A stretch of DNA of 32,458 nt from Candidatus Poseidoniaceae archaeon (GCA_030741225.1 JASLVU010000003.1:1-32458), one strand, 5' to 3'; shown: positions 2,883 through 25,264, counted from the first letter of the stretch. Notes: a model not told the origin generated them from the sequence alone. A program made the numbers and translations.

Positions 2883-5252
2883 ATGTCGCCAATTTTTTGG
2901 GGCATGAGGAATACAAGCAATGCATCGATTTGTTCGGTTTGTGAACATCCGTCATCATCCAGTACGTGTTTGCTGTGCGATTCAATCATCAATACGAACA
3001 AAACACAGCAATGGGGGTGTCAGGTGAGTCAAGGTTCGCATGATGAAGCAATCGAAATGCTTGGCGCCGAAAATAAATCCGCTCAAAAAAGATGGAAATC
3101 TATTGTCCAAAGCACATCACAATCCAAGGATGTTCAATGGGCACGATTGTCCGACATTTCGAAAGATCCCGTGCTTTGTTCACCATGCACCGATGAAGAA
3201 TTGGATGAAATAAAGATTCGAATTTCAAACGGGCAAAGGCTCTCAAATCTTCAAAAGCAACAATTACAGCGAGGGTTTCAACTTGTTGGGGACGTACATG
3301 TTTCTATTGCAGAAGGTAAGATGATGATTAATGGAAGTACTCTTCCCGCTCAAGTCCCTCTTCTTTCGGTTCTCAATTTGCTTTCTTCGAAGAAATCGAG
3401 AATTGGTTGGAATTTGGAAAAATTATTGATTGCTCTTGGGTCAATGAATACTGCCGCTATTTCGGCAACATTACCTCATCACATCCACAGACGGTTCATG
3501 CGACATAACCACATTTTAGAATCGAAACAAAAACCAGGTGCAGCAGCAGTTCTCTCTTGGGTTGAATGGGTATCTGAAAATCATTTATCTCCGCCTGAGG
3601 ATTGTTTGATTCATCCTTTAGGGGCATGGTCTCGGGATGTTCGTTCATGTTTGACCACACCGAACGGTTCAACCTTTGAAGCCAATTTGAAGGAGGCATT
3701 TGTCCATCACCCCCCGACTCTCGAGTGTCTTGTCCAGTTCCCTTGGATCCCCCGTTGGATGGTGTATACGTCTCCAATCCAAGTGAGCACAAATCGGCCA
3801 TGGCCGCTTCAGATTGTCAACGAAAAGCTGAAGTTGATTGTTCGGTCGAAAAACAACGCCTCACGAAAAACCTCGGTACCAGATAATCCTGCACTATGGG
3901 CTCTTCTGCTGTCCTACACCTATTCCCCGATGTCTTCAGAAGCTGGAAATTTACTGTATGCACTCCAGTACAACTGGACCAATACTGAGTCAACCGTCTC
4001 ATCGATTTCATCTCCAATCAAACGCTCGATACAGTTACTTCGTCAAGTCATTGACAGCAATTCGGACCGAATTTTCGTTCACGACCAATACATGCTTGTC
4101 ATAGGCCGTTTGGGACATTTCTTCGAGATTAAAGTTGGCCGCGGGGCTCATGGCGCTCCATTCATTATCAAGTCAATCGATTCTCTTGAACCTCGGTCAT
4201 CGACTCCGCTCTGCATTTACGACAGCTCATTCCACTCGTCGGTGCCGTTGGGTGATACCATTGTATCTGTGTTACTCGCACTTCTTGATGATGTGAAAAC
4301 CTCTACCGAAATTGACAGTCTTCAAAAATATCTTTGTCATTACCCTCCGCTAGGTTTCCCTCGTCTCCTTCATGAAGGACACTTACGATTGCTCAACACT
4401 TCGACCCTTGCTGAATTCAAGAAGATTGTCGATCAAAGTTTAGATTCCCGTATTCGATGGTTGAAGGAATCGCCTCGAGAGAATGGAAATGAATTTGAAC
4501 AAATTCAAGGACAGAACATGATGCATCTTTTCCGTAGAAACATTGCTTTCAATCGCAACAGGTGGCAATTCGATAATCACAGGAGAGCAAGAACATCACG
4601 ATGCGACACATTGGTCGAGCATGCTCTTGCTGCCGATTCTGCACTACCTCACCCCCAATTCATTGAATTGTGGCATGAATCACTTGAAAAAGGGGACGAG
4701 GAAGGCCATATGCACAACAATTACGTTCATCGCCGAATGCTCAGAGAAATAGTTCCTCCGCAGATTCCAATAGCGACGAATAATCGATTACCAACCGGAG
4801 ATATACGAAACGGAGAGCGCCGGTTTTGCGAGGTGTTTTCTCGTGTATGGGATGCGATGATGCACCATCCAATTGGCTCTACATTCCGCATGGGTGTTGT
4901 TGATGGTGGTGATTTGACTTTCGAACATTGTCACCTTGGTGTAACTCTTCGAAACCAACAAGAGAGGCGAATTGTCAGACGATTCGCAAATTTGCTCGGT
5001 TTTGTTGAAAATGGAACCTTTGGGCAGAGGATGGTGTTTGTCCGTCGAGACCATGCTCGAACGACTGCATTTAGAGACCTGTCGACCTTTCTAAATCGTA
5101 TACAAGACAACACATATGCAGTAAATACCTCGCCATGGCGTTGGCATTATATCCAAGTGGTAAAAACACCGACAGAAATACCAACTCTTCGATGGGAACT
5201 CGAGCAAGACTTGAGAGATACCAAGCGTAAAGGGGTTCCAAGAAATCGTTAG
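2883..5252 (+). CDS. Hypothetical protein (~780 aa) with N-terminal CxxC...CxxC zinc ribbon
   Basis: Long uninterrupted ORF starting 9 nt after ltaE; CSVC-x8-CLLC at the N-terminus. Start may be ATG 2904. Confidence 0.75.
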   Translation: MSPIFWGMRNTSNASICSVCEHPSSSSTCLLCDSIINTNKTQQWGCQVSQGSHDEAIEMLGAENKSAQKRWKSIVQSTSQSKDVQWARLSDISKDPVLCSPCTDEELDEIKIRISNGQRLSNLQKQQLQRGFQLVGDVHVSIAEGKMMINGSTLPAQVPLLSVLNLLSSKKSRIGWNLEKLLIALGSMNTAAISATLPHHIHRRFMRHNHILESKQKPGAAAVLSWVEWVSENHLSPPEDCLIHPLGAWSRDVRSCLTTPNGSTFEANLKEAFVHHPPTLECLVQFPWIPRWMVYTSPIQVSTNRPWPLQIVNEKLKLIVRSKNNASRKTSVPDNPALWALLLSYTYSPMSSEAGNLLYALQYNWTNTESTVSSISSPIKRSIQLLRQVIDSNSDRIFVHDQYMLVIGRLGHFFEIKVGRGAHGAPFIIKSIDSLEPRSSTPLCIYDSSFHSSVPLGDTIVSVLLALLDDVKTSTEIDSLQKYLCHYPPLGFPRLLHEGHLRLLNTSTLAEFKKIVDQSLDSRIRWLKESPRENGNEFEQIQGQNMMHLFRRNIAFNRNRWQFDNHRRARTSRCDTLVEHALAADSALPHPQFIELWHESLEKGDEEGHMHNNYVHRRMLREIVPPQIPIATNNRLPTGDIRNGERRFCEVFSRVWDAMMHHPIGSTFRMGVVDGGDLTFEHCHLGVTLRNQQERRIVRRFANLLGFVENGTFGQRMVFVRRDHARTTAFRDLSTFLNRIQDNTYAVNTSPWRWHYIQVVKTPTEIPTLRWELEQDLRDTKRKGVPRNR

Positions 5253-6202
5253 TCTTCTCTACGTGGATTACGTAACAAGGCAACTGCAGCGAGTATCCCC
5301 ACACTTGAAATCATTGAGATTCCAGGTAGTGACCCTTCATCTTCATCGCATCCCTCTGGAAGCATGCATTCTAATTCGTCAGAGGTTTGATTCTCTACGG
5401 GAGTATCTTCAACAGGGTAATTCAACTGGTAAAGTAGGTGAACAGAGAGATCGTTGCCGTCGTATGCAGGCGGAAGAGTGATGCTGGTATTACCTGACAT
5501 GGAAATCTGACTGCCATTAACTTCCAACAGCCCAAGTTCAAGGATTCCACGAACTACATGGGGGTAGTCCTCTAAGCCATTTGTTCCCTCTTCGAAGTTT
5601 GCCGACTTTTCAACAATCCATGCTTGGGCAACGATTGAACTTCCGTTCGGTGCTGTTAAACTCTCAATGTTCAAAGCCCATTCTACTGTCCCAGATGTGT
5701 TGGATGTGGGCGACCATACAAACAGAGAATCTCCTGCATGTTCAAGTGATTCTTGTGCGTGCTGGGTAAATTCAACCTCTAGAGATTCTGAACTCGTGAC
5801 GCTTCCTGGCTTGATGATTGTACCGTTAAATATCACCACAGGTGGTGCGAAAACACCGTACCTGTCGTGGAATCTTTGGTCAACTTCAATACTCCCAAGA
5901 GGGTCTTGGATTTCATTGATTGCCCGATGTATGTGGTACTGTTGAATGCCGGAATCATTTTCGATAGCATCAAGAGCATGCTCAACGTCAACACAGTTTG
6001 AGCACCATGTTGCAGTGTAGACCTCAACAACAGGTGGCAAATCACTCAAATTAAGCGTGGAGTTTCCAGTGCTGTTTGCATATGCCCATTGTCCCCCAAT
6101 AAGTAGGCCGACATCAGTTTGAGTTGCCGGAGCGGCCACGGTTGTGGCCGGCCCAACACTTGTCAAAATTAAGATCCCAATGAGGAGGATTGCTTTGCGC
6201 AT
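5249..6202 (-). CDS. Secreted thioredoxin-fold (CXXC) protein with C-terminal PGF-CTERM-like membrane anchor
   Basis: Signal peptide MRKAILLIGILILTSV; VVEVYTATWCSNC active-site motif; cis-Pro-like FAPPVVIFNG; tail LPGI + hydrophobic helix + RNPRRED. Confidence 0.8.
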   Translation of the reverse strand: MRKAILLIGILILTSVGPATTVAAPATQTDVGLLIGGQWAYANSTGNSTLNLSDLPPVVEVYTATWCSNCVDVEHALDAIENDSGIQQYHIHRAINEIQDPLGSIEVDQRFHDRYGVFAPPVVIFNGTIIKPGSVTSSESLEVEFTQHAQESLEHAGDSLFVWSPTSNTSGTVEWALNIESLTAPNGSSIVAQAWIVEKSANFEEGTNGLEDYPHVVRGILELGLLEVNGSQISMSGNTSITLPPAYDGNDLSVHLLYQLNYPVEDTPVENQTSDELECMLPEGCDEDEGSLPGISMISSVGILAAVALLRNPRRED

Positions 6203-7685: not shown

Positions 7686-7761
7686 ATCTTTCTCGATTCG
7701 GTGAAAACAGTTGAGAGCCTTCAAGAACAGTCGACATCTGTGCCCTTGTTGGGGGAACGTT

Positions 7762-10700
7762 ATGAACGGAAATAGTATGCCAGCGATAACTCTTGAAGCA
7801 GTTCCCTCGGGCCATAATATTCCTACATGGCTCCTCCAAAGCATATGTGATGGAGAGTGTGACAATCATCTTTTCTTGTATCCAAACGAAGGTAGCAGGA
7901 GTCAAGTCCTGCATCGATTAGCACAATTAAATGTTCCAATTGATACAACGCATCACCTTACACTGCGTCGGTTGATTTCTTTGATGATTCTCGATTCAGG
8001 ATTGCCACCTGTTCTTCAAGACAGTTCGGGATTGTTTCTATCTATCCACGCCCATGTCAAAAAGGCTGCTGAATCCGGCGATTTACCTCTGATGTATTCT
8101 CCTCAAAATCAAAGGCAATGGTCACCATATCAAACCGAACGTCTGCTTGCATTGCATCACTCGTTAAGTGAATTGAAGAATCCTTGGAATTGGGATAACG
8201 ACCCAGGTGCAAAGGAGTTTGATTCTATTTTGAGAAAGGTCTGTGAGCAATTGGGAGGGACTCACCCACATCATGCGCTTACAAGCTTGATCAAACATTT
8301 CAAAGAAAACGATTCAGTACCGTTTACACTCAACGATGTTCAAGGTCTATTTGTCTTAGATTCAGCCCCAGACTACACTGAGGTCGAACGAACTTTCCTT
8401 CAACAGATTGGATGTATGCGGCCAGTACACCAACTGTGTGTCCCCGGTTCCTTTCGACTTGGTTATCATGGGTCACATTTGCTTGAGGGTGATTGGGAAT
8501 ACGTGAATGAAGAAACCTTGCCTTCCTGGATTCCGAAACATCAAATTTGGGATTTTGACGACATAAATTCGTGGAGGTCTCCTGTTTCCCTTGAACGCAA
8601 GACCACGTATCATCGAATAACTGTCAACCGGAGAGCACATTGTATCGATGCCGCTTTTGAAATCCTTCATGAGTATCGTCAATCGATGAATGGGGAGGTT
8701 CTCATCATCGATGGCTCTGCAGAGAACAACAGAAGAATGTGGAATTCTAGGCTTCGTTCGCTTGGCTACCTTACTGGTTTTGAAAAACAATCTCTTGAAC
8801 AAATTCCGTCTCTTGCGAGTCTCGCTCATCTCATGAGGATTGGTGATGGTTTAGACGCTTGGTCGATTGATAAGTTAAAATCGTTATTTGAAAATCAAAG
8901 CCTTCCTCTTCCAAATGGAGGAGTAGGAGGTTTGCAGCACCCTACCAAAACAGATTGGACTCCTCGCCCCCATCCGCACATTTTGGAAAATATTGCTCGT
9001 ACCTTTCATGTCCGAGGTGGTTTAGGTGCACTTCATCGATGGCTTTCTACGCTTTCAAACGCAACTCCACAACTTGGAATTGAGCGAGAAAGGGCATTAC
9101 AAGAACTTGAGGAAACTCAATGGTGGCTTGGATGTATTGCTCAAACATGGCACCCGCTTCTCGACAAATTTTCTCAAGAGGTATTGAAGACTGAAATCAT
9201 CGGTTGTTCGTCTGGTGAAAAACTTCCAATGCCCCCACGTCCCAAAGACGGTTTGCAGTGGCTTGATACGTTGCTTTCGAAATTGGATTGGGATTCTCTG
9301 AAAGACCTAACGGTTGGCCACAATCGTTCTATCGCAGGATTACAACACCTTCGCGAATCACACAAAACCACTCAAAAAACGCTAAAAAAAGCGAACTTAG
9401 AAGTTCCGTCAACCGGCCAAGAATTTCTCAATTATATCGACCATTTAATTCAAAACACCACCGTTCCACGTACGCGAAACAGAGGAAATCAAATACAAAT
9501 TTTAACTCCTGAAGAGGCTCAAGGGATGGAGGCAGACCTCGTTCTTCTTGTTGGATTGGATGTTGGTTCATGGGCGATGAAGTCTCCAAGAGTTCCCTGG
9601 CTCGATGCGCAATCTAAACTCCGATTAGGCATGCTTCATTCTGATTTGACAATTCGCAAAGGCCGTCACCATCTGCGCCATTTGTTAAATTCTGCAACAT
9701 CCGTAATTGTGTTTGATAGCACAAAAGAAGAAGGGGGCGGCCCTAGCGCTCCCCTTGCGGAATGGTTCACTGAGTTACGCCAAAGTGGGGAGCTTTCATT
9801 GCTTCAAAACCCCCCGAGTTTTCTCCCTCAATCTTCCCATCAAACTGGAAATTTGAATCGAAGTTGGCATTGGACTACCGATGAACACGGTGAAGCATGG
9901 CTAACGCCAAGGCCGTTTACTGTGTCTGTTCAAGATGGAGTCATTTTTGCCGAGCGCGCAGGACATCGCCTTCGTGACCAACGGCAACGCCTCGGATTAG
10001 CATTGAGAGATGGCCTCCAACCCAGCGGTAATGTACTTTCAAAAAGTTCAGTGGCGATGGCACATGAGGTTTCCATTCAACTGGACCGATTTCATCGTCA
10101 GCCTAGCCACAAAAATTTAGAGAAGAACGAATATCTTCCGTGGCACCTTCGAAAGTATTTACTCAGTGTTGATGGGCTAAATTTGCGTCCGAAGAAAAGT
10201 CAAGTTTCAGTTGGTAGCAACCAACATGAATCATGGCCGAATCTTGGTATGAAAGGTTCGAGGAGTAACGGACCTGCAATAGATCCACGTCCATTACCTC
10301 CACAGAATATGAAGAGTGATATTCTCAATTCGGTGATGGGGTATTCCACTCCAATTGAAGTCGATGTTTGGTCTCCAAGCCGAATTCAGTCTTGGCTTGA
10401 ATGTCCGCGTTTAGCATGGATGAAAAACCATCTCAAAGCTCAAGCCCAAGAATCGCAGTCTGAAGATTTGGACCACAGGACTCGCGGTACTATTCTGCAC
10501 GATGCTGAAGCTTCCCTACTGCGTTTCCACGGTGTTCCTACGGCGGCACGACCGATAACTTCGCCTCTACCTCTCGATCGAACTCCTTTGGAACAACTTT
10601 GGCTTTCGATTCTCGATTTCCTCAGGGATGAGGTCTCTTGGCTCAAACGTGACGACGCTATTGCTGTTCATCGTTGTAGAGAAATGCTTGGTGTCACTCC

Positions 10701-11493
10701 AGATGTATGGCGAAATTATCTCGAAGGAGAGGGGCAAATTTCCTGTGGCGGCCGGATAGGAAGGATGCTCCTTTCGGATTATTCACTGAATCATGCTGCG
10801 CCGATAGCATGCGAATATGGTGTCGGACTTGACGGGAACTCAGCAATTACATTGGATGCTTGCGATGACAAAGGAAATCCTTCACCGTTCAAAATTCGTG
10901 GAAGAATTGATCGAGTTGACGAAATCGTTCTTGATGAGAAGCAAAGGAAGGAAGCAATTGCAGACGGCGTCCTTTCCGAAACCCTCGTATCAGAGCCGAT
11001 GCCCCTGGGGCCAGGCCTTCTCCCTCCGGCGAATCGCTTGGTTGTCATTCGGGATTTGAAGACAATCAATGGACCTAAAATCAATGAACAGGGGAATCGG
11101 CATCGACGTGGTTTATTTGATGAAGTACAACTCGCATTGTACGCAAGGGCATGGGAATTGTCGTTCCCCGGCGATCGCGTTGTAGGCATCGGAGTAACCG
11201 AAATAGGAGAATCTACAGTTCATTACCTTGAAATGGACCAGTCTGTAACCAAATATCTGCATGATGCAGAAATAGGAGAACGAACATATTACTCACAAAA
11301 ATTGCATCGATATCTCGAATCGCAATCGAGTGAGGATATTGGATTACGAGCGTTGATTGCAGAACGACTGAGAACCTCAAACCGTGCAATTTTAGCAGCA
11401 AAATCTGGTAATGTGAACTCAACTCCGGGGCGTCACTATTCGTTTAGTCCAATACGCCTTGTGTATCCAAGTAAATTTGGAGGGAATGCATGA
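7762..11493 (+). CDS. addB: AddB/RexB-like subunit: inactive helicase-like body plus C-terminal PD-(D/E)XK nuclease
   Basis: Degenerate helicase motif V (ILTPEEAQGMEADLVLLVGL), no Walker A, WSPSRIQSWLECP, RGTILH, IRGRIDRVD, IRDLKT and QLALY. Coupled (ATGA) to a downstream UvrD/AddA gene. Start uncertain (TTG 7711, ATG 7762 or ATG 7777). Confidence 0.8.
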   Translation: MNGNSMPAITLEAVPSGHNIPTWLLQSICDGECDNHLFLYPNEGSRSQVLHRLAQLNVPIDTTHHLTLRRLISLMILDSGLPPVLQDSSGLFLSIHAHVKKAAESGDLPLMYSPQNQRQWSPYQTERLLALHHSLSELKNPWNWDNDPGAKEFDSILRKVCEQLGGTHPHHALTSLIKHFKENDSVPFTLNDVQGLFVLDSAPDYTEVERTFLQQIGCMRPVHQLCVPGSFRLGYHGSHLLEGDWEYVNEETLPSWIPKHQIWDFDDINSWRSPVSLERKTTYHRITVNRRAHCIDAAFEILHEYRQSMNGEVLIIDGSAENNRRMWNSRLRSLGYLTGFEKQSLEQIPSLASLAHLMRIGDGLDAWSIDKLKSLFENQSLPLPNGGVGGLQHPTKTDWTPRPHPHILENIARTFHVRGGLGALHRWLSTLSNATPQLGIERERALQELEETQWWLGCIAQTWHPLLDKFSQEVLKTEIIGCSSGEKLPMPPRPKDGLQWLDTLLSKLDWDSLKDLTVGHNRSIAGLQHLRESHKTTQKTLKKANLEVPSTGQEFLNYIDHLIQNTTVPRTRNRGNQIQILTPEEAQGMEADLVLLVGLDVGSWAMKSPRVPWLDAQSKLRLGMLHSDLTIRKGRHHLRHLLNSATSVIVFDSTKEEGGGPSAPLAEWFTELRQSGELSLLQNPPSFLPQSSHQTGNLNRSWHWTTDEHGEAWLTPRPFTVSVQDGVIFAERAGHRLRDQRQRLGLALRDGLQPSGNVLSKSSVAMAHEVSIQLDRFHRQPSHKNLEKNEYLPWHLRKYLLSVDGLNLRPKKSQVSVGSNQHESWPNLGMKGSRSNGPAIDPRPLPPQNMKSDILNSVMGYSTPIEVDVWSPSRIQSWLECPRLAWMKNHLKAQAQESQSEDLDHRTRGTILHDAEASLLRFHGVPTAARPITSPLPLDRTPLEQLWLSILDFLRDEVSWLKRDDAIAVHRCREMLGVTPDVWRNYLEGEGQISCGGRIGRMLLSDYSLNHAAPIACEYGVGLDGNSAITLDACDDKGNPSPFKIRGRIDRVDEIVLDEKQRKEAIADGVLSETLVSEPMPLGPGLLPPANRLVVIRDLKTINGPKINEQGNRHRRGLFDEVQLALYARAWELSFPGDRVVGIGVTEIGESTVHYLEMDQSVTKYLHDAEIGERTYYSQKLHRYLESQSSEDIGLRALIAERLRTSNRAILAAKSGNVNSTPGRHYSFSPIRLVYPSKFGGNA

Positions 11494-14400
11494 TGATTCG
11501 GTTTAATCGTAGTCAGCGCCTAGGTTTGGACTTGGACAAACATATAGCCCTTGACGCCGGAGCCGGAACTGGAAAAACCACGGTTATGGCAGAACGTTAT
11601 GTTCAACATCTTTTGTCTCATGAACAAAGAGCAACTTTGCTTCTACCCCCAGGCCCGCGAGAGCCATTGAACGGCCATGGCTCCTTACGTGCTCCGCCAA
11701 AACAGCGCACCAGTCAGAAGGAATGGAAAGCCTTACTTCCCAGTGAAACGGTTGCAATTACATTTACGAAAAAAGCAGCATCAGAATTGAAATCAAGAAT
11801 CCGTTCAAGAGTTGCACAAACACGTTCCAGCCCAATTCAATCAGGAGATGTCGATGGGATTTTCGACCCAAGAATTCGTGACCAAGCCGATGTTGAAATG
11901 CTTCTTTCATCGCTGGACGAGGCACCAATCTCTACAATTGACGCATTTCTTTCTCAACTTGTATCCCCTCATCTTGATTCTGTCGCAATTCATCCGAGCA
12001 GAGAACAGATTGCGGAAGAACGCTCGCCGTTGTTAACTCGCGAGGTTTTACAATCCGCATGGAGAATTCGAACAGTTTCAGATGCTCTCGAGGCAGGCGT
12101 ACGAGGCAATGTTGCGGAATTCATTTCTGCACGTAATCGGCTGGCGATTCTTCTTGGTGGTCAAGAACGAGCTGCCGTAGTTCTCAGTGGTATGCTCGGA
12201 AAATCATTGTTCGTTGAAGAATCTCACCGAGCAATGGTGTCGCGAGCAAAATCAATAGGCCATTTTTGGGATGGAAGAAGTTCATTGCCGAATGAAGTAC
12301 TCATGGATATGTTTTTGGAACCAGTTCGTGATATTGCCGTAGAATACACTCAGATTCTGCAAGGTCTACTTGTACAATGGACAGACCATTTCTTGGGATA
12401 TTCGACACATTATGTCGCACCATGTGAATTGGAAATCGAAACATCGCTTACACGGTTTAACCATCTAACAAATCTAGCTAGAGAGCCGTTGCCGGAGAAT
12501 CCAATTGAATGTATTCAGTGGGTTTGGCAAGTGGCGCTTGCCTCAACTTCAGCCAGTCAGTTGGAGTCAGAGGACGAACCAAACTTTTTCCCAAAAGGCG
12601 GCTTACCTCAAGCGAACCATTCAAATGGATGGCATCCGGGACTTTACGGAAAGTCTGCAGCAACCACATTGTCGAAAGGGGTTCGAGATACTCTCCATGC
12701 AGAAGCCGCGCTCTTGGCTGAAAGTCTACGTAGTCATCTCAATTCACGCCAAGGACGGCTTGTTCGCTTGCTTGGAAAATGTGCTTTTTTGTTTCAGCCA
12801 TTATCTGATATTCCATACATGCCAGATGATTGTGAACTTCGTCCACAACCCGTCGGTACTGAATTTGAAGATTTAGCTCCTTCAGGTAATCTCAGAATTT
12901 CCAGTGAGTTACAAACAAGTGTTCTCAGCGATTTGCTACTTGTCCATCGTGGATGTCAAGACATTCTAACTTTGATGAAAGCCCAAGAAGGGGTTCACGA
13001 CTATGACGACATTCAACGATTAGCGGCTGATTTAACCCTTGCCCGTTGCCCAGACATTGTCCGTCACATCTATCCCCATGAAGTGGTTCAAGCATTGGAT
13101 AGTTTCGATGATGAACCGTGGTCCGACCGTCATATCGCTCGAGCAATAAGGTTGGCGTCAGATGATCAACAATGTTTTGAAGATTTAAATCGCAGATTCG
13201 CTGTTTTGCAATCGATTCGACGCCAGTTTCGAGCTTTTATTATCGATGAATTTCAAGACACGAACCCTGCGCATTTCCGACTTCTCGCTCGGTTATGGGG
13301 TCATCGGAATGCAAATTTTGACGAGCCAAAAAAACCACTCGGACCATGGGATCCGACAATTTGTATAGTTGGGGATATGAAGCAGAGTATCTATCGTTTC
13401 CGTCAAGCAGAGGTAACAGTCATGCGAAGGACAGTATCCGCGATTAAGCTTGCCAATGAAACAGAGTTGCTGGACTCTCGATTAGACCATCTACGTAAGA
13501 ACGGCCATGGTCGTGACCCGAGGCCTGTTGGTGCTGGTGGTCAAACCGGTTCGTTCATTGTAGGTACAGAGGTCAAAGGTTCGTCAATACCCTCTCTACC
13601 TTGGGAGCATGTCAGTTTTGCATTTGACGACGATGAGAGCGCATTCAATGTTCTTGACGAGGAACATAAGCATCGGCGCTCGCTCGGACATGTTGACCTT
13701 ACATCGAATCACAGAACATTACCGAATCTAATGGATATGATGAACGGTATGTTCCAAGATGTATTTTCCCCACGACACCACCTTCTCCCTGGCGACTGGC
13801 ACGCAGAACATCAACATCTTCGGGCAGCACGTGTATTAGATAATTCAAACGAATCTAATTCCAGCATTATTTCGGTAAATAATGAGAGCAGTGATGCGAA
13901 ATCATCTCTCTCCAATTGCCACGGAAAATCCACTATCGACTCAAAACAGCAAGGGCAAGTTGAATGGCTTTTACCGCTTCAAATTGATGCTCAGAATCCG
14001 AGCCTAGAACTTGACGAGTACTTCGATACCTTCAGTGCACTTGAAGCTTCAAACCATCACCTCGAAAATGAGTTAATTGCAGCACGATTGCAGGCACTTC
14101 TCTCTCATCGGCCAACACAAGTTTGGAATTCGAAGACGGATTCTTACACCGAAATACCTCAAAATAATACCGAGGTGAAGCCCGAAGATGTCCTGGTGCT
14201 TGTTCATTCTCGAAAACATATTCCAGATTTGATGACTCGATTGCAATCGAGAGGAGTTCCGGTCATGGCCGACAGGCAGGGCGCTTTACTCTCACAACCA
14301 ATCGCGTTACCCTTACTTTCATGCCTCGAACTTCTTGCTAATCCAATGTCTCGTCATGCTGCACTAACACTTGCCCGCTCCCCAGTTTTCGGATTCAATG

Positions 14401-16580
14401 ACGCAGAATCTCACCGTTTAATGACTCAAGAGTTTGAAGGAAATTGGTGGCAAAAAATACAGCATTTTGCCCCGAATGATTCGATTCGTCAGCTTGCCCA
14501 TCATCTTGAACAACTTGTTCAGTGTGGTGCATTGCACGATGTGTTTGATGTAATTCTGGACCATTCTGACCTTTTGGTGGCTTATCCAGATGATACTTCT
14601 CGCCAAAATGCCGAGTCGATATGTGCTTTGATGGTCAATATAGGCAATGAGCTAGGTCACGAACCTTCTGCAATCTTTAATCGACTCACTGATCTTGAAG
14701 ACTTGGGCAATCAAGGTCCATCAGCTATTACGACACCTTCCGGCGGAGCAGTTCAAATCATGACCATTCATGGTGCTAAAGGGCTTCAAGCGCCGGTCGT
14801 CGTCGTAGCAGGATTATTCCACGCCGGGAAGTCTGATGCAGCCCTAGCAGCGAGAAACAATGTCCTTGTCACACCTCAAGTTATTGCCGGCAGAATAAAT
14901 CCATGGAGTTCTCGCGAACGACCCAAAGACGGTCTTTGGGAATTCACCAAGTGCATCGACCATGCTCAGCGCCAAGCAGAACGACGTCGAGAGTTCTATG
15001 TTGCTTTGACGAGGGTGGAGAATCATCTGATTTTATCCGGTTCTCCATCTCGAACCGCAGAAATAGATTCGAAAACCAAGAAATTGATGGTTCGAGTAAA
15101 ACCATCACTCAAAACTATGGGGGGGATGCTCTTGGATGGTTTACGCAGTCTTTCGCATCAAAACCGGATAGAGGATTCTCCGTGGCTATTGGAGGGAGAT
15201 GATTTCGCATCACCGCTCTCATCCTTTACCGAAACAATGCTGGAATTAGATCCGTTTGAATTATCCAATACTTCTCTGCTTGGAATCCCTACTCTGGGGG
15301 GGATAAACATCTATCATGGACCACAATGTTTCCCGAATTTACAGAACAAAACCCCTCTCCAACAATGGTACGCTGTTGAGCAGCGTATGAGCGGACTCTC
15401 CGATGGACACAAGACCGACAAGAAGGTTGTTCCAACAGTTCATCAAATTCTAAGGATGCCAGCACACAGTCTTGACTCAAGTTTCAACAATCCACGAACT
15501 CACTGGTTGACGGAGGTTCGAGGATGGATGCCGGAACCATTCCACTTCTTTTCAACCCAAGCAGGAGAGAGCATGAAACCCAAATCTCTCTATCCTGAGG
15601 CCACGGTATTTGGAACTCTCATGCACCGACTTATTGAAATCGGACTTCAAAACCCCGCATCTCAAAACGGTCCACCAGTTCTTGATTTACCTTCGGCATG
15701 GGTGTATGATGGAGAAGACAAACTCGATGATTATGAAACCATCAAACGCGTCATGGCAGAAGAAGGTCTTGGCGTTGACCAGTCAAGCGATGACGTAGCA
15801 CAAAGAACTGCAAAAAGGTTGGCTGAACTGGGCCGCTTGATACGAATCGGATTGCTTGGTAAGTATGCTGCTGGTGGTCAATATCATGGATATGTGGTGG
15901 AAGGACTAAGGACGGAATTACCGTTTTATTATGTTGACAAGGTGAATTTTTCTGATTTATTCAGAACGGGGTTCTCAGTCAATGGACCAGTACCTCTCTC
16001 TCAAATCAATCATGTGGATGTTGTGTTTGATGGTCGAGCAGACCTTGTACTCGCCTTACGAGATGACAACGGGAATGGATTTTTGCAAGTTGTTGACTTG
16101 AAAACCAAAGGATGCCGAGATGAATTCAACTCGGATGATTCCAGCCGAGGTAGTTCATTACAACGCTATGAAGGTGATCTCCTCGACCCTCATGCATCAA
16201 CCGGTGCAGAAGCCACAATTCTTGAGCAACATAAACTGCAACTTACGTTGTATTCCCTCGCATTAGAATCAATTGAGTTACAAAAGCCCGAATCAAAACG
16301 CCGAACAGTACTCCCGCCTTCGCTTCTCATAGGCGCATCTGGCAGGATTGTCCAAATGACACCAGAAGAATACTACGAATCCAAAAAGTTGTTTTCGAAG
16401 CATGTTCGTTGGATGGCTCAGTTGTCTGCAGCACCTGAAACAGTTCCGGAGCCGTTAACTGTTGAAGACTCCAATGGAGATGTTTTGGCGTTGTGCCCAT
16501 TTTCAAAGGGAGACATCCGATTGGGTCTTTCCGGAGACGATATTCTTGGGAACAATGAAGAAAGAGATTATGATTTGTAA
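11490..16580 (+). CDS. addA: AddA/UvrD-family ATP-dependent helicase-nuclease
   Basis: Walker A AGAGTGKT (11556-11579), AITFTKKAASELKSRI, STIDAF, DEFQDT (13245), VGDMKQSIYRFRQA, MTIHGAKGLQ and FYVALTR. C-terminal RecB-type nuclease FGTLMH / GRADLV / VDLKT / QLTLY. Confidence 0.9.
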   Translation: MMIRFNRSQRLGLDLDKHIALDAGAGTGKTTVMAERYVQHLLSHEQRATLLLPPGPREPLNGHGSLRAPPKQRTSQKEWKALLPSETVAITFTKKAASELKSRIRSRVAQTRSSPIQSGDVDGIFDPRIRDQADVEMLLSSLDEAPISTIDAFLSQLVSPHLDSVAIHPSREQIAEERSPLLTREVLQSAWRIRTVSDALEAGVRGNVAEFISARNRLAILLGGQERAAVVLSGMLGKSLFVEESHRAMVSRAKSIGHFWDGRSSLPNEVLMDMFLEPVRDIAVEYTQILQGLLVQWTDHFLGYSTHYVAPCELEIETSLTRFNHLTNLAREPLPENPIECIQWVWQVALASTSASQLESEDEPNFFPKGGLPQANHSNGWHPGLYGKSAATTLSKGVRDTLHAEAALLAESLRSHLNSRQGRLVRLLGKCAFLFQPLSDIPYMPDDCELRPQPVGTEFEDLAPSGNLRISSELQTSVLSDLLLVHRGCQDILTLMKAQEGVHDYDDIQRLAADLTLARCPDIVRHIYPHEVVQALDSFDDEPWSDRHIARAIRLASDDQQCFEDLNRRFAVLQSIRRQFRAFIIDEFQDTNPAHFRLLARLWGHRNANFDEPKKPLGPWDPTICIVGDMKQSIYRFRQAEVTVMRRTVSAIKLANETELLDSRLDHLRKNGHGRDPRPVGAGGQTGSFIVGTEVKGSSIPSLPWEHVSFAFDDDESAFNVLDEEHKHRRSLGHVDLTSNHRTLPNLMDMMNGMFQDVFSPRHHLLPGDWHAEHQHLRAARVLDNSNESNSSIISVNNESSDAKSSLSNCHGKSTIDSKQQGQVEWLLPLQIDAQNPSLELDEYFDTFSALEASNHHLENELIAARLQALLSHRPTQVWNSKTDSYTEIPQNNTEVKPEDVLVLVHSRKHIPDLMTRLQSRGVPVMADRQGALLSQPIALPLLSCLELLANPMSRHAALTLARSPVFGFNDAESHRLMTQEFEGNWWQKIQHFAPNDSIRQLAHHLEQLVQCGALHDVFDVILDHSDLLVAYPDDTSRQNAESICALMVNIGNELGHEPSAIFNRLTDLEDLGNQGPSAITTPSGGAVQIMTIHGAKGLQAPVVVVAGLFHAGKSDAALAARNNVLVTPQVIAGRINPWSSRERPKDGLWEFTKCIDHAQRQAERRREFYVALTRVENHLILSGSPSRTAEIDSKTKKLMVRVKPSLKTMGGMLLDGLRSLSHQNRIEDSPWLLEGDDFASPLSSFTETMLELDPFELSNTSLLGIPTLGGINIYHGPQCFPNLQNKTPLQQWYAVEQRMSGLSDGHKTDKKVVPTVHQILRMPAHSLDSSFNNPRTHWLTEVRGWMPEPFHFFSTQAGESMKPKSLYPEATVFGTLMHRLIEIGLQNPASQNGPPVLDLPSAWVYDGEDKLDDYETIKRVMAEEGLGVDQSSDDVAQRTAKRLAELGRLIRIGLLGKYAAGGQYHGYVVEGLRTELPFYYVDKVNFSDLFRTGFSVNGPVPLSQINHVDVVFDGRADLVLALRDDNGNGFLQVVDLKTKGCRDEFNSDDSSRGSSLQRYEGDLLDPHASTGAEATILEQHKLQLTLYSLALESIELQKPESKRRTVLPPSLLIGASGRIVQMTPEEYYESKKLFSKHVRWMAQLSAAPETVPEPLTVEDSNGDVLALCPFSKGDIRLGLSGDDILGNNEERDYDL

Positions 16581-18225: not shown

Positions 18226-18324
18226 TACATGTCAAATCAAGGGTTTTGCTCTGTCCTTTCATGCGTCGGCTTGATAGGGTGGTGACGTGTGGGCGTTCAT
18301 GGAGGCTTACCTCCGGGTGAAAAA

Positions 18325-19128
18325 ATGACCGAAGATGGAACCATTACACCAGAAGATTTTGAACCTGCAGTCAAGAAATTGTCACCGGACGAATACGAAG
18401 ACCAAATCAAGGTCCTTTACGAGGCGTTCACTTCTGCACAAGCTGATTTGGAGGATGCATTAGCGACCATTGAAGTTCTTGAAAAGGAAATAATTGAGCG
18501 AGAGATTGAGAAGGAAACTCAAGAGGCCCTTCTTTCTGAAAAGGAGGTTCGAATCAGAGAACTGGAACTTCGAGCGGTCAAGGCAACAAAAAAGGTCGAG
18601 CATCTTGAACCAGAATTGGAAAAGATGGAGGAAAAATACTCTCGTGAAAAGACTCGTGTAAGCACTGTTTTCAGCATTGCTGAAGAACTCGATAATGATT
18701 TGAAACATGCAGTTGTTGAGATGAAGGCTCGTGATGATTGGTATGTTGACCACATGCAGATTTTTGAAGACCTTAACAAAGCAATCAAGGTTCGATATGA
18801 AATGATCGAACGAGCAATAGAGGCTGAACGGAAGTCACAGCATATGGCACGAGCCTTCACCGAACGTATGGAAGACATGGTCGAAGCCCGAGCATCTGAC
18901 ATGGCAGAGGCTGAAGCAGAAGCAAAGGCTGCTGAGGAAAACAACGCCTCAGTGGAAACCGTCGAATCTGAAGAAAACGCCTCGTCCGAAGAGCCTTCTG
19001 AGGAAAGTGCAGACAAGCCTGATGAGCCATCTGACGAAGAACAGACTGAAGATACGCCAGAAGAAGCATCGACCACGACCACTGCCTCGGCTACATGGGC
19101 TGACGGCGATGACCCTTGGGCAGATTGA
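18325..19128 (+). CDS. Acidic coiled-coil hypothetical protein
   Basis: E/K-rich heptad pattern over about 190 aa, then an E/S/T/P-rich tail ending WADGDDPWAD. ATG at 18325 is preceded by GGGTGA. Confidence 0.8.
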   Translation: MTEDGTITPEDFEPAVKKLSPDEYEDQIKVLYEAFTSAQADLEDALATIEVLEKEIIEREIEKETQEALLSEKEVRIRELELRAVKATKKVEHLEPELEKMEEKYSREKTRVSTVFSIAEELDNDLKHAVVEMKARDDWYVDHMQIFEDLNKAIKVRYEMIERAIEAERKSQHMARAFTERMEDMVEARASDMAEAEAEAKAAEENNASVETVESEENASSEEPSEESADKPDEPSDEEQTEDTPEEASTTTTASATWADGDDPWAD

Positions 19129-20047: not shown

Positions 20048-21214
20048 ATGTCTGCGCCAAAAACGCTCACACTTCTTGGGGAAGGTAAGAAAGGTGCGCG
20101 TATCCATGATTTGGTGAAGGCTCCAGCGAATACTCCGTGGGCCCGTGCTCGTCAGCAATCATGGGACGCTAGTGAACCAGCGACAGTGTATTTCACTCCA
20201 GAAACTCTTGCCGATGGCACACCTTGCAGTGCAGTTACTGTTATTTTGCGAACCAAAGGTTGTCATTGGTGGTGGTCCAGTGGCTGTACCTTTTGTGGGT
20301 ACTTTAACGACACAAGAGATGATGTCACGAACGACGATCTTCACTCTCAATGGCAGTATGCATTGGAAAAGTTTGATGATTTCAAAGACCATGCAATGGT
20401 GAAGGTTTACACGAGCGGCTCGTTACTTGAAGACAGAGAAATACCTGTGGAATTTCAGCAAACCGTGTTATCAGATTGCCAGAGGCTTGGTAAAGAATTG
20501 ATTGTTGAAAGCCGATGTGAACAGTTGACAGATACAAAATTGGCATGGGCCAAGCAATTCAATCAAAGCTTTGCTGTTGCCATTGGGTTGGAAGCCTATG
20601 ACGATGAAGTACTCCGTTTTCACGTGAACAAGGGATTCTCAACCAAGGCATGGGATAGAGCGGTTGATAATCTCAAAAAACACGGTATTCGAATAAAGAC
20701 ATATCTTATGTTCAAACCACCGTTTATGAGTGAAGCAGATGCTTTGAACCACGGTGTAAAGTGGATTGAAGATGTTGCTCACAGAAGCGATGAAATTTCA
20801 GTCAATCCGATGAATATCCAACGGGGCACCATCATCGACCGATTGCACAGGAATAACGAATACCGGCCTCCATGGCTCTGGTCTTTGGTTGAAATGATTC
20901 GCCGAGCACACCCGACAATTCATCCCGATGGAGGAAAAAACGGAGATAAAGACCAAGTTTGTCGATTGATCATCCATCCTACTGCAGGAGGTAAAATTCG
21001 AGGCGCACATAATTGTGGCTCTTGCGACTCTGAAGTGGTTGCGGCGATTGAACGATATGCAGTTTCAGGTGATTTGGAAGAATTCACAGGCCTTTCCTGC
21101 TCCTGTGAAGCGGCCTGGAGGGAAGAATTGCTCCTTGAGCAAGCACTTCCCACCCCTCTTGGAATATCCAAACCTCGAAGAGGAAATACACTTGACAACC
21201 TTCGTTCTCTCTAG
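20048..21214 (+). CDS. raSEA: Archaeosine biosynthesis radical SAM protein RaSEA (TIGR01210-like)
   Basis: VILRTKGCHWWWSSGCTFCGY (CX6CX2C), KVYTSGS, IGLE, YLMFKPPF, YRPPWLWS and RGAHNCGSC. Confidence 0.88.
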   Translation: MSAPKTLTLLGEGKKGARIHDLVKAPANTPWARARQQSWDASEPATVYFTPETLADGTPCSAVTVILRTKGCHWWWSSGCTFCGYFNDTRDDVTNDDLHSQWQYALEKFDDFKDHAMVKVYTSGSLLEDREIPVEFQQTVLSDCQRLGKELIVESRCEQLTDTKLAWAKQFNQSFAVAIGLEAYDDEVLRFHVNKGFSTKAWDRAVDNLKKHGIRIKTYLMFKPPFMSEADALNHGVKWIEDVAHRSDEISVNPMNIQRGTIIDRLHRNNEYRPPWLWSLVEMIRRAHPTIHPDGGKNGDKDQVCRLIIHPTAGGKIRGAHNCGSCDSEVVAAIERYAVSGDLEEFTGLSCSCEAAWREELLLEQALPTPLGISKPRRGNTLDNLRSL

Positions 21215-21602: not shown

Positions 21603-23570
21603 ATGGAAGTCGTGTTTATTTCTACTGCTCTAATGGTCGGCATACTGGCCCTTGTTTCAAATTACATGGTCAAAGGCATTGGCGGGATGGCAAGTCCATT
21701 GCGTCAAGTTGGTTTGTTTCTCCTGAATAAAGCACCTGCTGGACTTATTGATTTGTTCAAGGATAAAGCAGGCAGTGGAACCAAGACTTGGATGCGATAC
21801 GGTATGGCTTGGTTCTTTATGGCGGTGCTCGGTACTTTCCTCGGCATTTGGCATCGCTACGACCCGACTGCTCTCAACTCACTTTCGAGTGTAGGCTGGA
21901 GTTACGATGACGGTTCGATGCTTACCGATTACACTCGAATTTTCTTCTCAACTGCGATGAATTACCTCCTTGTTGGCGCAGCACTCGTTGCCGTCTCACG
22001 TTCTTCGAAGGGACGCCTCGCAAGTGAGGCCAGCGCATCCATGGTTGCAGCCCTGTTGACTGCATCCACAATTGCAGTTTTGCTTCTGCCTGCTGTATTT
22101 TCATTCCTAACAATTGAAAATGAGGCGGCAATTTTGGAAACACTGCAAAATATTTCCATGCTGCTGCTTTCTGCTATGCTCCACCTAGCACTTCTCATCA
22201 ATATCTTCATCACTCTCGGTGATCGTGAACACGATGATATTTCACCAACGACATGGTTCTTGGTCCTCGCTCTTGTTGCCAAAATAACCAGCATGTTGTT
22301 TATTTTCTTTGGAGAGATTGTCGATGCTTCCCAAATGGTCTGGATGGCCGAACGAGTCCTCAATGGCTGGGTCCCACTTGCGCTTATCTTTGCCGTGGCT
22401 TACCACATCATTCCTTTCACTGCCGGTAAACCCGTTTGGTCTGCATCAATGCAAAAAGCGAACATGCTGTTCCTCTTTGTCACCATTCCGCCTTTCTTTA
22501 TGTCGTCAGCAGATGCCGGTGAACTGCTGCAAAATGTCGGTGCAATTCTCATGGCATTGGGGCTACTACCGTTGTTTGCTGGTTCCGTAAATATGGTTGC
22601 AACCGCGGCTTCTAACCTTGAAAAGATTGTGAAAAACCCAGGAGCATTTGCTGCTACTGCAGCGATGATGATTCTTCCAATCTTTGCCGTTGGTGGATTC
22701 TTCACTGGTATGGATACTTTCGTGGGAATGGACAAACTTGGCAACATGGCTCATACTGTCGATTCAGGATTTATGTTCACAGTTGGAGGACTGATGATGC
22801 TCGCTGCAATATTTACCTCATATCCGCTGACTTCACAAAAGCAACTGGCCAAAGCCAGCAATGCGCAACTTGCGGTATGGTTTACAATCATTGGAGGCCT
22901 AGCAGCAACAATTTCAGCATTAATTGGTGACTTTACCCAATACGGGGTTTCAAATTCAGGAGTTGAAGATGCGGTTGCTTCAACTGGCGGCTTCTATCTT
23001 GTGTCCGCCGCATTGTTTTATCCAATAACAATCGGTGTAATTCTTGCTGCACTTTCCATGATACACACTGGCCGTCCGAACAACGCATCCCTTACTGAAG
23101 CAGTGACCTCTACAGACATTCACTCCTACACTTTGGTTGAAGGTTCGACGACCATTCGAACTTTACTTGGTCGTGGCGTCGGCATTGATACGAAATTGAA
23201 CATTGGCGAGGTTGAAGAAGATGAAGGTGGTTCTTCTCTCATTCGAGTATCTGCTCAACTGCATAACGATGAAATTGTAGAATATCCCATGCCTGAGGAA
23301 TTGGTTATGCTTGCTCAATACCTCAAGCAATCAAAGCAGACCATTTTCGAATTCTTCAGCTCGATTGATTTGGATGGTTCCGGAGAAATTGACGGTTATG
23401 AATTCAGAGAGGCCCTCGCCAAAGCGAACATTGCTGACCTTCCTCCATGGGAAATGGGGCGTTTGGTTTCAGCGGTAGACTTGGATGGGGACGGTCGTTT
23501 GAACCTCCCAGAATTGGACATCATGCTTGTCAAGATTCGGAATGAGATTCTCGATTCTGAAGAAGAGTAA
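21603..23570 (+). CDS. Multi-pass membrane protein, heme-copper oxidase subunit I (CcoN)-like but lacking metal ligands, with C-terminal EF-hand pair
   Basis: About 12-13 hydrophobic segments. [14 protein letters not shown] and [25 protein letters not shown] resemble CcoN. EF-hand loops [12 protein letters not shown] (23367-23402) and [12 protein letters not shown] (23478-23513). Confidence 0.7.
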   Translation: [655 protein letters not shown]

Positions 23571-24877: not shown

Positions 24878-25264
24878 TCAATGACCCTTAGGCCGGTCAT
24901 AGGCCGGAGTTAATCTTGCCATATCTCCCGAATATTGACCACCACGATAGATAAACCAAACCGGGGCGATGAGGGTCAAGATGACCAGCAATGCGAGCAC
25001 ATACAATCCCCAAGGTCGGACATCGCTGAGAACGATGATCCAAAGTGTCCATAGCAATGGAATATACATGAAAATACTGTACCTTCGAGCCATTATCTGC
25101 AGTCGAGCACTTCGAAGCGAATCGTCGAACATGTTTGCAGCTTCTTCTTCGGTAACGAGACCTTTTTCTACACCACAACGAACACAAACCTGTGCTCTTG
25201 GTCCATTTCCGTGAATGAATTGCTCCCGGGAATAGGTGCTTGAGCAGTATCTGCATGTTGGCAT
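24878..25264 (-). CDS. Small hypothetical protein: N-terminal CxxC...CxxC zinc finger plus two TM helices
   Basis: CRYC...CVRC followed by two hydrophobic helices; fills the gap between ychF and pabBA. Confidence 0.75.
   Translation of the reverse strand: MPTCRYCSSTYSREQFIHGNGPRAQVCVRCGVEKGLVTEEEAANMFDDSLRSARLQIMARRYSIFMYIPLLWTLWIIVLSDVRPWGLYVLALLVILTLIAPVWFIYRGGQYSGDMARLTPAYDRPKGH

Follow-up and report, generated by a model that had tools for sequence, protein, structure and literature searches.

An AddB-like nuclease from a Marine Group II archaeon that has lost three of the four iron-staple cysteines

The stretch of DNA analysed here, called the window, comprises 32,458 nucleotides of Candidatus Poseidoniaceae archaeon (GCA_030741225.1 JASLVU010000003.1:1-32458; contig C239 of genome G000). 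It carries an addB-like gene (protein P0001), whose product is the nuclease subunit, AddB-like, of an AddAB-type helicase-nuclease encoded by two genes; the host belongs to the Marine Group II archaea (Poseidoniales). Of the four cysteines that serve as cluster ligands in the iron-staple nucleases, three are replaced in P0001. The most probable reading, with a probability of about 0.75, is that the staple of this AddB subunit was dismantled once, that the pocket was remodelled and a cubane cluster is most likely no longer bound, and that the nuclease, with a tail packed by tyrosines, is still working with its AddA-like motor.

The open reading frame of P0001 is open from TTG 7711 (1260 amino acids listed), but the probable start is ATG 7762, because close homologues of 1243 amino acids begin at the equivalent position, and TTG 7711 is probably not the start. 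Residue numbers here are those of P0001, and 17 should be subtracted for the likely protein. The first-pass annotation, made from the sequence of the window alone, had described a kept upstream cysteine in WLECP, the residues Tyr, Ser and Tyr at the spacing of a C-terminal CxxC-x5-C, each encoded one base away from TGT, and intact RIDRVD, DLKT and QLALY motifs. All of these could be read in the sequence and its translation (Table 1), where the tail runs PGRH-Y-SF-S-PIRLV-Y-PSKFGGNA to the stop codon, with exactly the CxxC-x5-C spacing. From the four-Cys ligand set of AddB (C...CxxCx5C) P0001 has the first Cys only, the rest being Y, S and Y, so that it does not show the one N-terminal and three C-terminal cysteines of the iron-staple class (AddB, Cas4, Dna2, Exo5).

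In the available text of the papers on this class, four conserved cysteines define the staple in AddB and Dna2 (PMC3378879) and in AddB, AdnAB and ACE1/ACE2 (PMC12094033), and all Cas4 family members are stated to have the four (PMC5704561). The ligands of B. subtilis AddB are given there as C801, C1121, C1124 and C1130, with conserved aromatic residues forming the shell in which the cluster lies buried (PMC3321194).

P0001 was aligned with 120 listed of the 256 homologues found, giving 121 rows, in which the gaps at the ligand columns came from P0008, a sequence cut short. The first ligand column was Cys in 121 of 121 rows. The second contained Cys in 112 rows, Tyr in 8 and a gap in 1, the third Cys in 112, Ser in 6, Gly in 2 and a gap in 1, and the fourth Cys in 104, Tyr in 8, Ser in 8 and a gap in 1. 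Since these columns are overwhelmingly Cys, the correspondence of the replaced residues to Cys positions is homology and not chance. The first-pass annotation had called for an alignment of orthologues, which might never have had Cys there; Cys proved to be common at the three positions. Among the matches listed, Y-[S/G]-Y was the reading of the eight proteins nearest to P0001 (68-100% identity) and of no others, the rows ranking after them, at 52-56% identity, had H-C-S[FY]-C-x-VRQI-C-PSA, and all three C-terminal positions were changed in one clade only, of 8 protein clusters.

The named homologues among these matches belonged to Poseidoniales / Marine Group II archaea. A 50%-identity library of 1.84 billion representative proteins was also searched and 98 were matched. 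The Poseidoniales AddB-like proteins are a divergent family of their own. The wider alignment of these 98 rows (91 newly returned representatives, P0123-P0213, and 7 met before) showed CCCC in 33 rows and -CCC in 15 fragments. Its lone Y-S-Y row was an 86-residue fragment of the loss clade, and a few odd rows were truncated or frameshifted ends.

A FastTree phylogeny was built from 119 full-length proteins, with the AddA-like partner (P0002), the truncated P0008 and the fragment P0080 omitted. The 8 loss rows formed one clade (support 100), which was sister to P0011-P0018 (CCCC, support 100) and nested within further CCCC clades. The genus comprised 72 genomes, 67 of them with an AddB-like match, and the ligand codons were read at the 30 best loci of these 67 genomes. 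Seven of the 30 best loci were C-Y-[S/N/G]-Y and 23 were CCCC, and the third-position residue was S in G000, G049, G067, G004 and G042, N in G006 and G in G022.

A second tree was inferred by IQ-TREE (LG+C20) from 22 species sequences, from which the last 32 residues were removed so that the trait columns could not drive the topology. The 7 loss species were monophyletic (100/99), their sister group of 12 CCCC species was monophyletic as well (100/100), and 3 CCCC outgroups served as root, with stem lengths of 0.33 for the loss clade and 0.32 for its sister. As the loss clade is monophyletic and both its sister and the outgroups rooting the tree bear Cys, a single derived loss of the ligands from a four-Cys Fe-S ancestor is strongly supported by the protein trees.

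That the replaced codons arose as errors of sequencing or assembly, or that the contig is chimeric, is hardly credible. The same state was found in 7 species genomes with differing synonymous codons and in 8 protein clusters of several sources, and around the addB-like gene the window has archaeal housekeeping genes, including two PTH2, a TFIIB zinc ribbon protein and a chorismate-binding enzyme. Twenty public runs from 12 studies hold the stretch, whole or partial. Sixteen of them are DNA runs with at least half of the sampled words; 15 of these carry the label seawater or marine metagenome, and X10 only that of 'organism A'. Four RNA runs hold a small share, and the label of one is hydrothermal vent metagenome. 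DNA runs X5 and X7 come from other studies, and their contigs bear no flag as possible sources; these contigs cover 10318-11600, show 5 and 4 differences from the window, and are identical to it at the four codons. The concern about assembly error, raised in the first-pass annotation, is thus answered by independent contigs and by six other species genomes.

Accompanying substitutions were sought as residues shared by 7 or all 8 of the loss-clade proteins and present in no more than 5% of the 112 Cys-bearing rows. Position 1215 was Trp in 112/112 Cys-bearing listed homologues and in every tail-bearing representative of the wider library alignment; 7 loss-clade proteins had Leu there and 1 had Phe. 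Position 1198, which was His in 92 of the 112, was Leu in 7/8 loss-clade proteins. Directly before the retained cysteine, position 897 was E or D in 8/8 loss-clade proteins, and K (56 rows), S, R, N or others in the Cys-bearing ones, with E in at most 5%. Two changes in the core were conservative (V1173L and V1160I). Trp1215 is a candidate former member of the aromatic shell round the cluster pocket.

A mechanism could be put together from these changes. In one subclade of the genus the second Cys turned to Tyr, the third to a small residue (Ser, Gly or Asn) and the fourth to Tyr, and the pocket would have been remodelled concurrently through replacement of the invariant Trp by Leu/Phe, of His by Leu, and of the Lys/Gln before the first Cys by Glu/Asp. 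The AddB-like protein would then most likely no longer bind a cubane cluster. The two conserved Tyr would probably pack against the region of the retained Cys, joining the N-terminal turn to the C-terminal tail, and the nuclease would still act with the AddA-like motor. The first-pass annotation had proposed an iron-free variant derived from an Fe-S ancestor. The ligand loss, the Fe-S ancestry and the intact motifs stood up to phylogeny, selection and motif conservation, while the absence of iron is what we infer from them.

The assignment to AddB was based on domains, gene order and fold. The single Pfam match of P0001 was PDDEXK_1 (residues 887-1071, E 9.1e-11), and the C-terminal part showed, as in AddB, a RecB-family PD-(D/E)XK domain with the D, D-x-K and Q-x3-Y motifs. 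NCBIfam TIGR02786 (addB_alphas) gave a weak local match (residues 558-680, E 2.3e-9) of 36 bits, far under its curated equivalog cut-off of 486.5 bits. In residues 1-880, where an inactivated SF1 helicase-like domain, the site of Chi recognition in the B. subtilis enzyme, was sought, no Pfam family matched, no Walker A was found and the TIGR02786 match was weak.

The adjoining addA-like gene, whose ATG overlaps the addB-like stop by 4 bases, encodes an SF1 UvrD-like helicase with its own C-terminal nuclease-like region (P0002), as is usual for AddAB-type systems. Its Walker A lies at residues 23-30. Pfam gave UvrD-helicase (E 1.8e-32), UvrD_C (E 1.1e-13) and PDDEXK_1, the last at 21.4 bits just missing the cut-off of 22 bits, and the best NCBIfam models, addA_Gpos (E 7.7e-47) and recB, both scored under their curated cut-offs. 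The partner is unusually long for the AddA/RecB type (1696 amino acids), with extended unmatched stretches between the helicase motifs.

For the fold, residues 870-1260 were modelled by AlphaFold2 together with 59 homologue rows. The nuclease-domain model reached a mean predicted local distance difference test score (pLDDT) of 88.2 and a predicted template modelling score (pTM) of 0.89. Foldseek placed AddB chain B first (E 1.3e-7), and VIA-align to 4cej_B gave Z 20.4 and an rmsd of 3.3 A over 293 residues, covering AddB residues 771-1142, a range which includes all four B. subtilis ligand positions. AdnA came next (Z 16.3-16.6), followed by ACE1/Cas4, RecE (11.8), MGME1 (11.3), Dna2 and Exo5. 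The RecB chain 5mbv_B reached Z 7.5, and the RecBCD rows 1w36_F and 8b1t_C, which we take to be RecC chains, Z 8.3 and 8.0. A phmmer search of the protein against PDB sequences gave no match, and the family profile against solved structures matched only Cas4 4r5q (E 0.031). As sequence searches of solved structures gave so little, it is the fold comparison alone that ties the domain to AddB.

Synonymous sites were saturated among the first four loss-clade genomes (proportion of synonymous differences, pS, 0.76-0.86), which made their pairwise ratios of non-synonymous to synonymous substitution (dN/dS) uninformative, and therefore the closer species G049, G067 and G042 were added. Most species pairs of the loss clade gave pS 0.6-0.86 and a proportion of non-synonymous differences (pN) of 0.09-0.24. 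By NG86, the nuclease-domain dN/dS in the loss clade was 0.075 (G000-G049, dS 0.23), 0.047 (G000-G067) and 0.083 (G004-G042), and 0.050, 0.070 and 0.065 in further pairs with estimable dS. Five CCCC sister pairs gave 0.050-0.072, and the upstream part of the protein lay in the same range as the nuclease domain. Of the loss-clade genes, 6 were read at full length (G000, G004, G006, G022, G049 and G067) and had an open frame, and in G042 the last 891 residues read were open, with an open frame of 1305 amino acids listed. In G004 the frame of 1247 amino acids is open, and two TGA in the match lie upstream of the real start. They stem from a non-coding extension of the kind seen in the window, where 17 codons (7711-7761, + strand) are open ahead of the homologues' start.

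The catalytic D, D, D-x-K and Q...Y were invariant in 60/60 aligned sequences and in all 19 species rows compared. Within the loss clade, the mean pairwise identity of the tail (residues 1230-1256) was 0.75 and that of the remaining domain 0.76, and it rose to 0.97 in the region of Cys898. The addB-like gene is therefore under strong purifying selection and is not decaying; the relaxed selection which the first-pass annotation had named as pointing to pseudogenisation was not seen (nuclease-domain dN/dS 0.05-0.08).

It could be supposed that the nuclease domain has been retired, either as a RecC-like dead scaffold for the AddA-like motor or in a gene becoming a pseudogene. Such a retirement would fit the low pLDDT of the tail and the destabilisation of B. 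subtilis AddB by staple loss, as given in the available text of PMC3321194. It is nevertheless very unlikely, since the six full-length frames are intact, the dN/dS of the nuclease domain equals that of the rest of the protein and of the Cys-bearing sisters, the catalytic residues are all invariant, and conservation in the tail matches that in the remainder of the domain.

Both Tyr were kept in 7/7 loss species, with codons alternating between TAT and TAC, and Cys898 was kept in 7/7 with TGT or TGC. The third-position codons were AGT/AGC, AAC and GGC. As the codons turn over while the residues stay, the two Tyr and Cys898 are selected, and the middle residue, which drifts, is merely required to be small.

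These conserved residues could also be read as a metal swap, in which Cys898, His1242, Tyr1243 and Tyr1252 would form a mononuclear, oxygen-tolerant site (Fe3+ or Zn2+) that acts as the staple. In other proteins iron is known to be bound by tyrosinate, His and Cys. Cys898 is invariant through both of its synonymous codons in 7/7 species, both replacements are Tyr in 8/8 proteins, and the second position follows a His in both the loss clade and its sister. However, Tyr is the transition neighbour of the Cys codons (TGY to TAY) and would be the expected replacement even without a ligand role, the third-position residues S, G and N do not point to a ligand, and the retention of His1242 and Cys898 needs no new function, since both are conserved to the same degree in proteins with the cluster. 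We regard such a site as improbable.

Another possibility is ligand migration, by which the cluster would still be bound through Cys898 and other cysteines of the domain (C989, C1034, C1051 and C1012). C1051 is Cys in 7/8 loss-clade proteins and in a fraction of 0.0 of the Cys-bearing rows, and C1012 is Cys in 5/8. A shifted pattern does occur in a separate clade of 8 proteins, where the fourth Cys is replaced by Ser and a new Cys stands upstream. C989 and C1034, however, are common to the sister clade and to 56-59% of the Cys-bearing homologues and so are older than the loss, the two clade-specific cysteines are not invariant (I or R occur), and Trp1215 was lost along with the canonical ligands. 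Migration was rejected, as three new conserved cysteines are not present, and it has little probability.

The separate clade (FastTree support 100; P0054, P0056, P0057, P0059, P0060, P0067, P0069 and P0076) consists of 8 clusters. Its extra Cys lies four residues ahead of the second ligand (PTPC-xxC-xxC...S-PS), which looks like a shifted ligand set in the aligned sequences and not a loss. Trp1215 is kept in this clade.

Several points weigh against a dismantled staple with a working nuclease. In B. subtilis AddAB, mutation of any single ligand Cys abolishes the binding of DNA ends (PMC3378879, PMC3321194), and cluster loss unfolds the nuclease domain of AddB (PMC3321194), as far as the available text of these papers goes. 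Since that enzyme fails without its ligands, a real compensation is required in the archaeal protein, and it is not directly visible. This reading also gives no account of the strict retention of Cys898. The accompanying substitutions all trace to one branch, so they count as a single evolutionary event and not as replicated evidence.

In addition, the pLDDT of the tail was low in P0001 (means of 59, 51 and 37 over 10-residue blocks). A control fold of the Cys-bearing sister G003, made with the same 59 companion rows, had a mean of 89.4 and tail blocks of 82, 78 and 60. The low confidence could mean a floppy tail instead of a new staple; as soft evidence, the gap may arise because the predictor recognises CxxCx5C but not its replacement, or because the tail is less ordered. 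Transcription is hinted at by three short contigs (10375-10525, 10718-10868 and 11046-11210) from the RNA-library runs X17 and X19, libraries which may contain DNA.

Compared with known systems, the AddB-like protein shares with B. subtilis AddB (PDB 3U4Q, 4CEJ), the prototype of the iron staple, the RecB-family nuclease domain with the best fold match, the first Cys in a turn before the domain, the tail with x2/x5 spacing and the adjoining addA-like gene. It differs by the replacement of three of the four ligand Cys, by very low sequence similarity, by the missing N-terminal Walker A and by its archaeal host. Length, operon and catalytic motifs are identical to those of the Cys-bearing Poseidoniales orthologues (P0011-P0018, G003). 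Identity to these orthologues is 52-57% (52-56% for P0011-P0018 and 53-57% for the sister-clade species), and they instead keep C...CxxCx5C, Trp1215, His1198 and Lys/Gln before the first Cys, with a tail one residue longer.

The nearest precedent in kind is found in the clusterless MutY glycosylases (MutYX), DNA-repair enzymes in which a supposedly indispensable [4Fe-4S] cluster was naturally lost in some lineages and compensated structurally, according to the available text of PMC12631127. MutYX has an unrelated fold and reaction and was compensated by helix expansion and a new helix, whereas the AddB-like protein shows point substitutions without insertion.

The cluster-free domains of RecB, AddA, RecE and MGME1 have the PD-(D/E)XK fold in common with it but are without the staple at the level of the family, while the AddB-like protein belongs to a staple-bearing family and shows a recent loss with the first Cys and the spacing kept. 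It does not fall into the cluster-free RecB/AddA type, as P0001 has no Walker A, folds nearest to AddB/AdnA and has four-Cys orthologues. AdnA of AdnAB (PDB 6PPR, 7SJR) was the second-best fold match of the nuclease domain. AdnAB has two motor subunits, and the AddB-like protein, which lacks Walker A, is unlike AdnA in this respect. As far as sequence tells, it is a cluster-less member of the known iron-staple class in which the ligands were lost and the function was kept.

The literature searched, whose coverage did not include the original 2009 paper on the AddB cluster by Yeeles and co-workers, yielded neither a natural AddB or RexB reported to lack the Cys nor a description of AddAB in Poseidoniales. 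A match to RexB was rejected, as it was an unrelated strain name.

The loss of cluster ligands is specific to the AddB-like protein, because SufB/SufD, an EndoIII-type Fe-S motif and two four-Cys nucleases are still encoded in genome G000. The latter belong to further PDDEXK_1 proteins, of which at least two keep the N-terminal Cys and CxxCx5C, one of 404 amino acids on contig C44 (L054; end CQNCSRRYAC) and one of 533 amino acids on contig C230 (CDRCDWSQIC). On C230 (L052, L053, L055, L057) the 533-residue protein with CxxCx5C forms a tandem pair with a PDDEXK_1 protein of 594 residues without it, which by its sequence may be another staple-less member. A further PDDEXK_1 copy on C59 (L051) is cut by the contig end.

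An iron-sparing or oxidation-resistance rationale, suggested in the first-pass annotation, can be offered as a hypothesis. Nickel superoxide dismutase (Ni-SOD) was found in 69/72 genomes of the genus (G000:C24:1373-1765 in this genome) regardless of the AddB state, and the C-terminal domain of Fe/Mn-SOD had no match in any of the 72. As this pattern is genus-wide, the type of SOD does not set the loss clade apart, and it was rejected as an ecological discriminator; the use of Ni-SOD is an iron-economical trait already present in the lineage. One cluster in a low-copy repair enzyme would save little iron, and robustness to oxidation seems a likelier motive than iron saving. Neutral fixation following compensation may also have occurred.

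Whether the Fe-S cluster of DNA-processing enzymes is purely structural or also has a redox or signalling role is a long-standing question. The laboratory view for AddB, in the available text of PMC3378879 and PMC3321194, is that the cluster is not removable, since single Cys mutants lose DNA-end binding. In the Poseidoniales, natural matched orthologue pairs of about 55% identity exist in one genus and one operon, with and without the ligand set, which makes this question directly testable. The ligand-less variant is under purifying selection across 7 species with saturated synonymous sites, and the cofactor, although held to be indispensable, is apparently not needed for the enzyme to work. 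The analysis also records that an AddAB-like system is conserved in the archaea which are most abundant in the surface ocean. If the metal swap were true, the site would be a cofactor type undescribed for any nuclease of the PD-(D/E)XK kind, and a DNA-repair enzyme would have had its cofactor replaced step by step in nature.

Table 1. Coordinates in the window of the two genes and of the ligand, pocket and motif codons of the addB-like gene
Feature	Position	Strand	Description
addB-like gene	7762..11493	+	1243 amino acids; N-terminal region without Walker A and C-terminal PD-(D/E)XK nuclease domain
Glu897	10399..10401	+	GAA, directly precedes the retained Cys
Cys898	10402..10404	+	TGT; retained first ligand position, in SWLECPR
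Motif GRIDRVD	10900..10920	+	nuclease motif; D1067 and D1070 invariant
Motif RDLKT	11050..11064	+	nuclease motif; D1115 and K1117 invariant
Motif QLALY	11128..11142	+	nuclease motif; Q1140 and Y1144 invariant
Leu1198	11302..11304	+	TTG
Leu1215	11353..11355	+	TTG, one base from TGG
Tyr1243	11437..11439	+	TAT, second ligand position
Ser1246	11446..11448	+	AGT, third ligand position
Tyr1252	11464..11466	+	TAT, fourth ligand position
addA-like partner gene	11490..16580	+	1696 amino acids (P0002); UvrD-type helicase domains and C-terminal PD-(D/E)XK-like domain

The two long overlapping open reading frames on the + strand (7711..11493 and 11490..16580) are accompanied in the window by other genes. 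The two PTH2 peptidyl-tRNA hydrolase genes are adjoining paralogues (998-1366 and 1367-1792, + strand; E 7.6e-37 and 2e-38). Five open reading frames were without a Pfam match at E <= 0.001 (2883-5252 and 18289-19128 on the + strand; 5249-6202, 24878-25264 and 28327-32415 on the - strand), two of them very large, with 789 and 1362 amino acids. The sole match of the frame at 21603-23570 (655 amino acids) was a C-terminal EF-hand pair. One protein (20048-21214, + strand) scored exactly at the Radical_SAM cut-off of 29.5 bits, and its Cys triad is C-x7-C-x2-C (CHWWWSSGCTFC) in contrast to the usual C-x3-C-x2-C.

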